DNA of 64,000 nucleotides, taken from IMG/VR virus record IMGVR_UViG_3300018495_000103. One strand, 5' to 3'. Position numbers and translations under genes: made by a program. The notes under the pieces were generated by a model, which saw only the letters and a list, made by a program, of their open reading frames with translations, had not been told where the DNA came from and made no database searches. Shown here one piece after another: positions 40,280-42,123 of the stretch (positions are counted from its first letter, which is position 1; each line of letters begins with the position of its first letter). This stretch comes from a virus.

Positions 40280-40795
40280 TTATTTTCCTCCATATGATAA
40301 TTTGAAATCAGTTTTTTCTGTTTTTTTATAAGTAGATGCATTTTTAGCATAGGTACTTTCTGCTTCGCGCAATTCTTGGCGCACATCCATTAAAATTTTA
40401 CCAAGAATATTTTTACCTTCGATTTCTGCACACTTGGGGCAAACACAATTACCCCAAGTATTATCATGCCAAGTATTGCCTTCTACTAATTCTTCATCAC
40501 CAGTGTCTAAAAGTTTTTGTTTTAAATCGGGGTCAGAAAATTTGTATTTCAAACCATCATGCATTACACTAATCTTAATACGCTCCCAGTCAGGGCGCAA
40601 AGAGCAGTGTCGCCCCATTCGCTTTGCCTGTCCAGGTGTTTTTGCTTTTGCAATAGCTTTAAATTCACTTTCACTCTTGGTTTTCCAAGCTTGGAACCAG
40701 TGTTCCACAGTAGGAAAAGTTACACCATCTACAGTAAAAGGAGAGGGGAAAAAGTTGCTTAGGAAAGCGTACTTTCCATCAAACATCGCAATCAT
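40280..40795 (-). CDS. NADAR-domain protein (YbiA/DUF1768 family)
   Basis: FDGKYAFLSNFFPSPFTVDGVTFPTVEHWFQAWK... is the NADAR N-terminal signature. TAAGGAGG RBS. Confidence 0.75.
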   Translation of the reverse strand: MIAMFDGKYAFLSNFFPSPFTVDGVTFPTVEHWFQAWKTKSESEFKAIAKAKTPGQAKRMGRHCSLRPDWERIKISVMHDGLKYKFSDPDLKQKLLDTGDEELVEGNTWHDNTWGNCVCPKCAEIEGKNILGKILMDVRQELREAESTYAKNASTYKKTEKTDFKLSYGGK

Positions 40796-40807
40796 AGCGA
40801 TACCTCC

Positions 40808-41614
40808 TTAGAAACTAAATGGACTTTCTTCTTTGTTGCTGTTTTCGTGCCAAGCACGAGTCTTGATACGAATATAGGGCATGCAAATATCTCTTTTATG
40901 GAGATTTCTGGTGTGGCGCTCTTCAATCTTGCGAAGAGTCTCATAGTCGGGAAGTACTTCATCCAAAAGATAAGCATCCAGTACATCATAAGGAATACCA
41001 GTGTTATCTTCATCGGTCTTACCACTCATACCATCACCAGGTGCCTTATGAACCAGGTGTGCGGGCAACTCATCCAGATTGTCGCCAATCTCAATGACCT
41101 CACGGACGCAGTAATCCTTTAAGATAGCGAAGTCGCCAGCCAGGTCACCATACTTGGTAGTGTAGCCGATATACAGTTCGGATTTATTGCCAGTATTGAT
41201 TACTCGACCGCCCATATCTGCGGCAACTGCGTAAAGAGTTGCCATACGGATACGAGCAGGCGTATTTGTATTAACTGCGGGATTTTTATAGGCGTCACCC
41301 ACCATTCCCGCAAACATCTTGGTGATAGGGCCAATATTGTAGGCTCTATAGGGAATATGAAGAATGTTGCATACTTCCACAGAGTCCTTAATATCCTTCT
41401 GGTCACCATCGGGCATCAGCACACCAAAAACTCTTTCGGGACCCAGTGCTCGGACAAGCAGGGCGGCCGCAATCGTGGAATCCTTACCACCGGAAATACC
41501 AATAACTGCCTTGGTATTCTCATTACCATTCTTGACAAAATATTTCTTAATTTCATCAACAATGTGCTGGATTTCCTCTTCAACATCAATTACTTTGAAA
41601 TCAAAATCACCCAT
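40808..41614 (-). CDS. nadE: NH3-dependent NAD+ synthetase
   Basis: PP-loop GISGGKDST, characteristic NadE length and C-terminal region. Confidence 0.85.
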   Translation of the reverse strand: MGDFDFKVIDVEEEIQHIVDEIKKYFVKNGNENTKAVIGISGGKDSTIAAALLVRALGPERVFGVLMPDGDQKDIKDSVEVCNILHIPYRAYNIGPITKMFAGMVGDAYKNPAVNTNTPARIRMATLYAVAADMGGRVINTGNKSELYIGYTTKYGDLAGDFAILKDYCVREVIEIGDNLDELPAHLVHKAPGDGMSGKTDEDNTGIPYDVLDAYLLDEVLPDYETLRKIEERHTRNLHKRDICMPYIRIKTRAWHENSNKEESPFSF

Positions 41615-41616
41615 AT

Positions 41617-42123
41617 TTACGCCTCCAGTTTGTAAATATATACATCATAGTCCTCAGAAAGGGCTTCCCAAATCATCGTTTTAATTACTTCCCAATTTGC
41701 GCCACCAAGGCCGCAGCCAATATGGTCAGGAAAGCCAATTTTACTGCCGTGGGGTACCTGGTCCCTAATCTTACCAAGACAAGACCAGAAGCCATCATAA
41801 GAAGTATATCTCTTACCATCATAGCCATAATATTGCTGTGCAAACATATTTATCACAGTCTTGTCTACATCAACAGGAACTAACTGAATCTCGCCCAGAA
41901 GGGTATCAGTCCAGTCGGGTCCGTTTTCCATCCCGCCGCACATTTGATAGATTTCTTCTTCTCTCTTGGTGCAGAGGGCAATATAATCTTCATATACTCG
42001 ATGCCATCTTGTTTTAATGTTCTTGGCGATGCCAGAGGCCATGCGCCCCTGGCAATTCACCTGATGGCAGTAATAATCCAATTTCGCTTCGAGCATATCA
42101 CCTTTAATAAAGTGAATACTCAT
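41617..42123 (-). CDS. macro domain protein (ADP-ribose binding/processing)
   Basis: IHFIKGDML...YYCHQVNCQGRMASGIAKNI corresponds to macro-domain motifs GDIT...NAAN..GGGV. 168 aa. Confidence 0.6.
   Translation of the reverse strand: MSIHFIKGDMLEAKLDYYCHQVNCQGRMASGIAKNIKTRWHRVYEDYIALCTKREEEIYQMCGGMENGPDWTDTLLGEIQLVPVDVDKTVINMFAQQYYGYDGKRYTSYDGFWSCLGKIRDQVPHGSKIGFPDHIGCGLGGANWEVIKTMIWEALSEDYDVYIYKLEA

Follow-up and report, generated by a model that had tools for sequence, protein, structure and literature searches.

A stand-alone macro domain and a YbiA-type NADAR flanking nadE in a phage NAD+ island: a possible extended NARP1-AP operon

Depletion of nicotinamide adenine dinucleotide (NAD+) and ADP-ribosylation are among the commonest strategies with which bacteria fight phages. 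Here we analyzed a 64,000-nucleotide stretch of viral DNA (IMG/VR record IMGVR_UViG_3300018495_000103; hereafter the window), in which the genes of a NADAR protein and of a macro domain protein flank nadE, the gene of an NAD+ synthetase. The initial annotation had noted this arrangement and read it as a dual antidote to DarTG-like defence systems. All three genes are encoded on the minus strand with coordinates that agree exactly with the open reading frame (ORF) list, and the domain assignments were borne out by Pfam, by profile searches and by AlphaFold2 (AF2) models. Judging from the sequence, we infer that the genes belong to one transcription unit, h82-Namat-macro-NadE-NADAR-AAA_28, which is the middle one of a three-operon NAD+ island. 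Our best reading, to which we give about an even chance, is that of an extended NARP1-AP operon that carries an autonomous base-ADP-ribose hydrolase in addition. The unit and its boundaries are the following:

43937-43909, minus strand: terminator-like hairpin, then a promoter-like TTGATT-17-TATAAT with TG at 43908-43880; predicted operon start, before h82-Namat
43603-43851, minus strand: h82, 82 amino acids (aa), function unassigned by homology; first gene of the operon, also called on identical metagenome contigs
42123-43598, minus strand: Namat-like protein (nicotinamide ADP-ribose transferase, NAMPT family); the gene calls of metagenome contigs give 491 aa
41617-42123, minus strand: stand-alone macro domain, 168 aa, ALC1-like class, assigned by profile and predicted fold
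40808-41614, minus strand: NadE, NH3-dependent NAD+ synthetase, 268 aa (PF02540 E=1e-50; TIGR00552 170 bits)
40280-40795, minus strand: NADAR, 171 aa, predicted YbiA-type N-glycohydrolase (PF08719, TIGR02464, fold)
39752-40279, minus strand: AAA_28 P-loop kinase with a NadR-type ribosylnicotinamide-kinase-like fold (PF13521 E=1e-10), substrate role putative; last gene of the operon
39764-39742, minus strand: terminator-like hairpin, then TTGATT-17-TATAAT at 39741-39713; operon end, after AAA_28

According to the ORF list every gene of the region lies on the minus strand, and the spacing within the unit is tight. The Namat stop and the macro start overlap (TAATG), 2 nt separate the macro stop from the NadE start, NadE and NADAR are 12 nt apart, with GGAGG as a ribosome-binding site in the gap, and AAA_28 begins directly at the stop codon of NADAR (TAAATG). 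The Namat ORF can be extended upstream to a GTG at 43670. For the h82 protein, the Pfam and PHROG searches gave no match. Our promoter and terminator calls are consensus pattern matches, whose total number is not above that of shuffled controls; the persuasive part of the operon evidence seems to us to be that an identical terminator-promoter unit recurs at gene boundaries. From the tight spacing and these repeated units follows the division into three transcription units. The repeated unit itself combines a GC-rich hairpin and its T-run with a directly adjoining TTGATTTTTAT..TATAAT on the minus strand; with further sites at 49952-49924 and 37852-37824, it is probably a phage-specific promoter class.

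The macro protein reaches 13.9 bits with the Pfam model Macro (PF01661), under the cut-off of 22, and the domain call is therefore based on profile and structure evidence. The protein matches PHROG 335 (4e-32), and a family profile of 69-70 relatives finds BT1257, SCO6735, both DarG macro domains, Poa1p and TARG1 among the structures of the Protein Data Bank (PDB) at 1.9e-25 to 4.7e-14, the best values being those of the SCO6735/BT1257 group (1.9e-25 and 6.6e-22). With the AF2 model (predicted local distance difference test score, pLDDT, 94.6; predicted template modelling score, pTM, 0.90), Foldseek retrieves Poa1p, BT1257 and the DarG macro domains at E ~1e-11 and template modelling (TM) scores of 0.69-0.78, with Poa1p on top. 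As judged by this model, the macro fold is clear and the matches are not chance. N23, the ADPr-binding Asn, and G77, Q96 and W144 are invariant in the family; the Gly-rich motif reads IGCGLGG. At the position of the catalytic DarG Lys80 (K84 in TARG1, K78 in AdfM) the window protein has Gln96, a residue that all 69 family members and all NARP1-associated macros compared share. SCO6735 and BT1257, 22-33% identical to the window protein, carry a Gln at the same position, which in thymidine-ADPr hydrolases of their type goes with a lengthened mobile loop.

We next compared bit scores, using as comparison macros the Osterman Table S1 sequences and the PDB macro domains, with the Gary sequences taken from the supplementary tables of the preprint, as Gary was absent among the matches that tblastn listed from the phage collection. 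With phmmer, the window protein gives 87, 82 and 76 bits with the NARP1-embedded macros of the Vibrio phages K354, 1.063.O and RYC. The first of these sits in an Adps-macro-Namat operon, and the other two are NARP1 neighbours in Osterman Table S1 (10.64898/2026.01.28.702374). Pseudoalteromonas phage PH357 (62 bits) and the Pseudomonas phages VCM (53), phiPsa374 (51) and JG004 (41) follow, while DarG, BT1257, SCO6735 and Poa1p remain at 25-31 bits. A preprint of the Sorek laboratory describes Adpp as a Poa1p-like macro protein that occurs in 15% of NARP1 operons and dephosphorylates ADP-ribose (ADPR)-1''-phosphate, the compound that aRES, a defence with a RES domain, generates, whereupon NARP1 remakes NAD+ from ADPR; for phage Gary, this NARP1-AP mechanism was shown experimentally (10.64898/2026.01.28.702374). 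On the basis of these similarities, the macro protein is best read as an Adpp-like ADPR-1''-phosphate phosphatase.

These data bear directly on the dual antidote, in which the macro protein would remove the thymine-linked ADP-ribosyl (ADPr) groups set by DarT2 and NADAR the guanine-linked ones set by DarT1, the position in the NAD+ island being incidental. We hold this explanation to be unlikely. It can draw on the ALC1-like class of the macro protein, within which thymidine-ADPr reversal is widespread (PMC9411070), on a match to PADLOC DarG at 1.9e-15, and on profile values of 1e-18 to 3e-20 with the DarG macro structures. Additionally, Gln96 corresponds to Gln85 of SCO6735, which is essential in this thymidine-ADPr cleaving enzyme (PMC9411070). 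We therefore rejected the missing DarG lysine as a disproof of DNA de-ADP-ribosylation, and macro reversal of the DarT2 modification is unproven rather than refuted. The catalytic Lys is nevertheless absent from the macro protein, while the phage antidote AdfM keeps N23 and K78 (PMC13309987). Moreover, the window protein is a macro domain alone, without a DarT-binding domain, its neighbours are Namat and NadE with no adjacent DarT2, it scores 53.5 bits with the NCBIfam DarG model NF048014 (cut-off 250), and it is far nearer to the NARP1-embedded macros.

The genes that make up the rest of the NAD+ island are:

47360-47306, minus strand: third terminator-plus-promoter unit, before PncA
46690-47280, minus strand: PncA-like nicotinamidase of the isochorismatase family (PF00857 E=3.6e-24; NF008623 partial match 1.9e-10)
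45652-46479, minus strand: PRPS-like protein of 275 aa, an Adps-like ADP-ribose pyrophosphokinase; belongs to the upstream operon PncA-Adps-YqeY-SIR2-lipoprotein
44338-45111, minus strand: SIR2/CobB-type NAD-dependent protein deacylase (PF02146 E=9e-45; NF001752 253.7 bits versus a cut-off of 221)
38787-39365, minus strand: nicotinamide mononucleotide adenylyltransferase-like protein (NMNAT; TIGR01527 E=1.6e-13, under its cut-off; PF01467 E=1.4e-5); in the downstream operon

The complete order is MVP-like, PncA-like, Adps-like, YqeY, SIR2, lipoprotein, h82, Namat-like, macro, NadE, NADAR, AAA_28 kinase, h105, NMNAT-like, Metallophos, AAA_33 kinase and Metallophos_2. With Namat, Adps, PncA, NMNAT and SIR2 around them, the NADAR and macro genes are indeed embedded in an NAD+ supply island, as had been proposed. 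The best PDB match of the Namat-like protein is the Namat of phage SpbetaL1 (9W5X/9W5W; PMC12774641) with 338 bits, compared with 170 bits for human NAMPT, and PHROG 448 is matched at E=2e-147. The Adps-like protein shares 40% identity with the validated Adps of Vibrio phage Gary (E=1e-31, 107 bits), compared with at most 55 bits for canonical PRPS structures; it matches PHROG 619 at E=8e-76. Adps enzymes are defined by the loss of the C-terminal alpha11-alpha12 module of PRPS (PMC13586617), and with just 275 aa the window protein is therefore without this module. In its DDxxD motif the third Asp is replaced by Ser/Arg. The Namat similarity together with the Adps homology indicates that the NARP1 core is present in the island. 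The macro gene lies directly downstream of Namat, inside the distance of two genes from Adps/Namat that is typical of Adpp, and Adps is found six genes upstream of macro in the adjacent operon.

To see how stable these associations are, we viewed the gene neighbourhoods of related viruses. A single-sequence macro scan of IMG/VR gave 2 loci; with a profile, macro relatives (33-84% identity) turned up at 80 loci, which fall into 43 clusters at 90% identity. Within the 10 kb viewed on each side, the counts are:

Namat directly upstream of macro: 48/80 loci, 22/43 clusters
Namat within 10 kb of macro: 58/80 loci, 28/43 clusters
NadE directly downstream of macro: 53/80 loci, 23/43 clusters
Adps within 10 kb of macro: 53/80 loci, 26/43 clusters
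PncA within 10 kb of macro: 52/80 loci, 25/43 clusters
NADAR within 2 kb of macro: 16/80 loci, 10/43 clusters
SIR2 within 10 kb of macro: 7/80 loci

Many phage lineages thus link the macro gene with Namat and NadE, and Namat-macro-NadE forms a near-constant triad, usually with PncA. This speaks further against the dual antidote, since the tightest macro linkage is the one to Namat and NadE and just 16 of the 80 loci have a NADAR gene close by. The frequency with which NadE follows downstream and PncA lies nearby suggests a deamidated branch of phage NAD+ reconstitution via nicotinate and nicotinic acid adenine dinucleotide (NaAD); in the searchable literature, we found no account of NadE or PncA together with NARP1.

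The alleles of the operon are mosaic. In loci L001-L008 the macro protein is 80-84% identical to that of the window, while Namat is just 41-43% identical and longer (581-585 aa); in L071 and L078 we see the converse, with 79-81% identity in Namat and just 48-53% in the macro protein. This points to recombination within the operon.

Domain identities, kept active-site residues, operon layout and gene linkage are shown by our data; all substrates and the counter-defence role are predictions. In the extended NARP1-AP reading, the predicted substrates would be connected as follows. The macro protein would act like Adpp on the ADPR-1''-phosphate that arises from NAD+ phosphorolysis by aRES and release free ADPR; possibly it would also take other 1''-esters such as the O-acyl-ADPR made by the phage Sir2. 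Adps would then pyrophosphorylate ADPR, and Namat would couple the product to nicotinamide to give NAD+, as in the NARP1-AP pathway. NadE with PncA probably completes a deamidated branch.

Several observations weigh against this assignment. With the validated Adpp of Gary, the macro protein shares 29% identity and 28 bits, no better than with DarG. The Gln of SCO6735 described above also counts here, since it belongs to an enzyme of different specificity. We had considered the ranking of PDB sequence matches as a discriminator between phosphatase and glycohydrolase and rejected it, because the NARP1-embedded K354 macro ranks identically; sequence alone thus leaves phosphatase versus DNA glycohydrolase undecided. 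In the adenine selectivity clamp of Namat, which in SpbetaL1 is formed by R40, F392 and Y396, only F392 is kept; R40 is replaced by Met and Y396 by Val, the latter beside a 10-aa insertion, and the R40 loop of SpbetaL1 Namat is described as variable. The closest homologue in a cultured phage, the macro of Bacillus phage vB_BcoS-136 (38% identity), lies away from NARP1 genes, and some relatives carry the macro-NADAR pair in a backbone of RNA ligase, kinase and phosphoesterase genes, where none of Namat, NadE and Adps is found in the surrounding 10 kb. Finally, in a NADAR-centred scan (59 loci, 43 clusters), Namat lies within 10 kb in just 5 of the 43 clusters, so the presence of NADAR in the operon may be lineage-specific packing. 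Indeed, NADAR joins Namat and NadE mainly in the window's own lineage, and across the 59 loci its commoner neighbours are Metallophos, AAA_33 and Metallophos_2 genes.

The NADAR protein is assigned clearly by PF08719 (E=1.8e-32, 113.3 bits, cut-off 35.1) and TIGR02464 (108.2 bits, cut-off 73.7). Its PDB matches are E. coli YbiA (2b3w, 3.6e-19) and the Phytophthora PnNADAR (8bau, 5.7e-14), and the AF2 model (pLDDT 86) finds the same two structures with Foldseek at E=4.8e-9 and E=2.7e-8, respectively, with a TM score of 0.70 each. With the DarG1-type structure from G. lovleyi (Geobacter; 8bat), in contrast, the TM score is 0.42 and E=0.49. PnNADAR is a guanine-ADPr hydrolase whose ADP-ribose-contacting and catalytic residues have been listed (PMC11543638). 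Its residues E43, K50, R79, W89, R93, E125, D130 and W133 correspond to E31, K38, R62, W70, K74, E105, D111 and W114 in the window protein, and the ADPr-contacting and catalytic positions are invariant in 48 homologues. E105, which lies within 'LVEGNTWHDNTWG', is the Glu of the YbiA subfamily at the E125 position of PnNADAR; DarT1-linked NADARs have Asp and T4-type phage NADARs have His at this site (PMC11543638). The score with PF08010, the T4 gp30.3 type, is 23.4 bits (cut-off 36), and the protein begins at the YbiA core, without the basic extension at the N terminus that is assumed to bind single-stranded DNA in DarG1. By sequence and model, it is thus of the YbiA type and not of the DarG1 or T4 AdfN type. 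The catalytic residues, whose check the initial annotation had proposed, are all present in NADAR, whereas in the macro protein N23 is kept and Gln96 stands in place of the DarG Lys; both proteins look catalytically competent.

Three further features of NADAR deserve mention. Within the family, C117, C119 and C122 (GNCVCPKC) are near-invariant and lie, in the region of residues 115-128, in a 5-residue insertion that has no counterpart in YbiA and PnNADAR; situated beside the active-site W114, this CxCxxC insertion may be a zinc knuckle. The protein also has a C-terminal tail of ~25 aa (residues 146-171) with predicted disorder at 154-171, and most homologues are without this tail. A 50% identical NADAR is encoded by the recoded human-gut phage Phass-1 (L150; OQ749652, code 15 clade), which has nicotinamidase, Prs-like and Nampt-like genes; NADAR lies ~7 kb downstream of the NAD genes, and no macro is annotated in the record.

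In vitro, every NADAR subfamily tested frees DNA and RNA of guanine-ADPr, and the YbiA-type ones also act on cytidine-ADPr (PMC11125620, PMC11833690, PMC12945103). The window enzyme would accordingly be expected to remove ADP-ribose from the exocyclic amines of guanine or cytosine in phage DNA or RNA, as a countermeasure, like AdfN, against DarT1 and further ADP-ribosyltransferases (ARTs) that target bases, and the freed ADP-ribose would be a NARP1 substrate. The orphan NADARs of T4 (AdfN), Bas32 and Bas60, three unrelated phage proteins, neutralise DarT1/DarTG1 (PMC11257639); on the other side, in one study neither E. coli YbiA nor the T4 NADAR relieved the toxicity of DarT1 in cells (PMC11125620), which again weighs against our reading. 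By analogy, an AdfN-like role is plausible, yet not one specific for DarT1.

For the dual antidote as a whole, orphan phage antidotes of both kinds thus exist, AdfM for macro (PMC13309987) and AdfN for NADAR (PMC11257639), and macro and NADAR stay paired in relatives without NARP1 genes. The YbiA-type Glu in place of Asp or His, the missing basic extension and the TM score to 8bat argue the other way. The absence of a toxin partner, on which the initial annotation had built, holds: NADAR has NadE and the AAA_28 kinase as neighbours and no adjacent DarT1, no ART family occurs among the annotated genes of the window, and no ART, DarT or Tpt1 Pfam family is found among the genes called over ~4.6-25.6k and 31.6-64k, positions 1 to ~4.6k and 25.6-31.6k having no precomputed Pfam annotation and many small ORFs being unannotated. 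The proposal is therefore partly supported. Its NADAR half gains from the kept residues and the AdfN precedent (PMC11257639); its DarG-like macro half does not stand, given Gln96 for Lys, the lack of a DarT-binding domain, the low DarG score and the likeness to NARP1 macros. In the proposed structure comparison, likewise, the macro model does match the DarG fold, and the NADAR model resembles YbiA and PnNADAR much more than the DarG1 type. Closest to the evidence comes the fallback idea that the genes clean up ADP-ribose adducts of NAD-consuming effectors.

The relatives that lack NAD genes raise another possibility, namely that macro and NADAR are accessories of RNA repair. They would stem from an ancestral module of RNA ligase, polynucleotide kinase and phosphoesterase genes, around which the NAD+ island was inserted later. 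The macro protein would then clear ADPR-1''-phosphate or ADP-ribose 1'',2''-cyclic phosphate (Appr>p) from a 2'-phosphotransferase in tRNA repair, like yeast Poa1p, and NADAR would clear base-linked ADP-ribose on RNA. To this explanation as a whole we give a low probability. The clearest case is L098 (IMGVR_UViG_3300045988_132576, 5493-16188), which has no NAD+ synthesis genes and the order RlaP, Metallophos, RNA ligase, macro, NADAR, Metallophos, AAA_33, Metallophos_2, Band_7, that is, macro-NADAR between RNA ligase and phosphoesterase/kinase genes. From such relatives it seems that, in the window's phage, an RNA-repair-like backbone has taken up the NAD module, and the window shares this backbone:

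50632-52050: RNA ligase
36255-38617: Metallophos, AAA_33 and Metallophos_2

That phosphoesterase and kinase genes are the most frequent neighbours of NADAR, that Poa1p is the top structural match of the macro protein, that Iyer et al. predicted links of NADAR and macro proteins to RNA repair, and that NADARs reverse guanosine-ADPr on RNA (PMC11833690) all fit as well. What lowers our estimate is that no Pfam match to Tpt1/KptA or a 2H phosphoesterase occurs among the genes called over the annotated ranges given above, and that in more distant lineages the macro gene accompanies Namat and NadE and not RNA ligase. Moreover, the predicted macro activity is identical to that in the NARP1-AP reading; only the source of ADPR-1''-phosphate differs.

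A housekeeping function without direct counter-defence appears very improbable to us. Here NADAR would act like YbiA on ribosylamines of the riboflavin pathway, and the macro protein would deacylate Sir2-made O-acyl-ADP-ribose. A CobB-type SIR2 deacylase would produce exactly this compound, and such a gene lies 2.2 kb upstream; in the same direction, NADAR is above the cut-off of TIGR02464 ('riboflavin biosynthesis intermediates N-glycosidase'), macro homologues are named 'O-acetyl-ADP-ribose deacetylase' by the Joint Genome Institute (JGI), and TARG1/OARD1 is structurally related to the macro protein. However, the island showed no genes for riboflavin biosynthesis, SIR2 is found within 10 kb of macro in just 7 of the 80 loci, YbiA-type enzymes also act on guanine- and cytidine-ADPr (PMC11125620, PMC12945103), and the make-up of the island matches known anti-NADase counter-defence.

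Returning to the extended NARP1-AP reading, one may speculate further. The Namat-macro-NadE core, mostly accompanied by PncA and Adps, could be a deamidated or broadened NARP1 that returns several ADPR derivatives to NAD+, with NADAR in this lineage as an additional feeder for N-glycosidic ADPR conjugates, a proposal to which we attach little probability. By analogy with Adpp and RyDEP, the substrates of NADAR could then be base-ADPr, His-ADPR, canonical immune signals of the cyclic ADP-ribose (cADPR) type or amine adducts of free ADPR; the enzyme would destroy the signal or lesion and at the same time supply ADPR to Adps and Namat. Namat might accept nicotinate too, with NadE finishing the synthesis.

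Phage NADARs against DarT (AdfN, 2024-25), a phage macro domain with this function (AdfM, 2026) and the macro phosphatase in NARP1 are already known. What appears undescribed in the searchable literature is the near-constant triad of Namat, macro and NadE, which PncA usually joins; a YbiA-type NADAR that is predicted to be transcribed together with it; and the presence of NMNAT, a nicotinamide riboside (NR)-kinase-like protein and Sir2 in the same combination. The operon puts enzymes against NAD+ depletion and against ADP-ribosylation into one predicted transcription unit. If the macro protein is indeed an Adpp, NARP1-AP would reach abundant uncultured large phages, beyond the few cultured Vibrio, Pseudomonas and Acinetobacter phages, and NadE, usually with PncA, would be its near-constant partner, indicating an unstudied deamidated pathway by which phages remake NAD+. 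If NADAR acts on soluble N-linked ADPR conjugates, it would represent a third class of NARP1 feeder enzymes. At the same time, a macro and a NADAR gene in a phage are not on their own proof of an anti-DarTG pair; the context and the residue at the Lys80 position should be checked.

As for the phage itself, a large gut phage, the island gave no megablast match among 50,697 phage records, and the phage is therefore uncultured. Identical proteins are found on many metagenome contigs, some of them of 0.2 to 1 Mb, and related IMG/VR viral contigs measure 130-200 kb. The left part of the window is a replication module with Pol III alpha, DnaB, RecJ, SPbeta-like YorF/YorH, ThyA, DHFR, topoisomerase and a DNA ligase:

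20347-22338, minus strand: NAD+-dependent LigA-type DNA ligase (DNA_ligase_aden, OB, HHH and BRCT domains)

Because it encodes this NAD+-dependent ligase, the phage has a direct need for NAD+ in replication. Adjoining the NAD+ island upstream is the MVP-like gene (47373-49889, minus strand), which has its own TTGATT-17-TATAAT site at 49952-49924; its product of 838 aa, with Pfam MVP_shoulder and a faint Vault_3 match, resembles the major vault protein, which is unusual in a phage. At 52000-59000 (minus strand; compare locus L151) we observed a Thg1-like 3'-5' polymerase, an RNase T, a T7 Gp5.9-like RecBCD inhibitor, a full sigma-70 factor and two further metallophosphoesterases. A small protein of ~119-127 aa at 61452-61835 (minus strand) carries the Pfam domain PF20274 cREC_REC, for which processing of ADP-ribose derivatives was predicted by Iyer et al.

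Among known systems, NARP1-AP of Vibrio phage Gary, present in ~15% of NARP1 phages (10.64898/2026.01.28.702374), shares with the window a small stand-alone macro beside Namat with Adps nearby, and a macro of the ALC1-like subclass that carries Gln where DarG has Lys80, the similarity to several NARP1 macros being 76-87 bits. The window differs in its order, Namat-macro-NadE instead of Adps-macro-Namat, in having Adps in the neighbouring operon, and in its additional NadE, PncA, NADAR, AAA_28 kinase, NMNAT and SIR2 genes; the identity of the putative Adpp of the window to Gary Adpp is 29%. AdfN (T4 gp30.3) and its orphan counterparts in Bas32 and Bas60 (PMC11257639) are likewise without a toxin partner and have the same Glu/Lys pair (E31/K38 in the window, E36/K43 in AdfN). 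Unlike AdfN, the window NADAR is of the YbiA type, with Glu105 instead of the T4-type His and a PF08010 score below the cut-off (23.4 versus 36), lies in an NAD+ operon and carries the CxCxxC insertion and the disordered C-terminal tail.

The chimallivirus DarG2-like macro AdfM (PMC13309987) and DarG2 belong to the same broad class as the window macro, with the invariant Asn (N23), and AdfM too is phage-encoded and stand-alone; AdfM K78 and DarG K80 are, however, replaced by the invariant Gln96, and the DarT-binding domain is missing. With the ALC1-like enzymes SCO6735 and BT1257 (PMC9411070), the macro protein has in common the Gln at the catalytic-Lys position and a His at the position of Poa1p H23, whereas the identity is ~22-33%, an insertion of ~18 residues follows helix 2 in the window protein, and the genomic context is another one: SCO6735 is a bacterial chromosomal enzyme with thymidine-ADPr DNA as its substrate (PMC9411070). 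Finally, RyDEP of NARP1 operons (PMC13232231) has an unrelated fold, the RyR domain, and cleaves an O-glycosidic bond, in 2'/3'cADPR, so that the parallel with NADAR is one by analogy. Nevertheless it is, like the enzymes considered here, an accessory hydrolase at a NARP1 locus, one that converts an ADPR derivative into ADPR and thereby fuels NAD+ synthesis.

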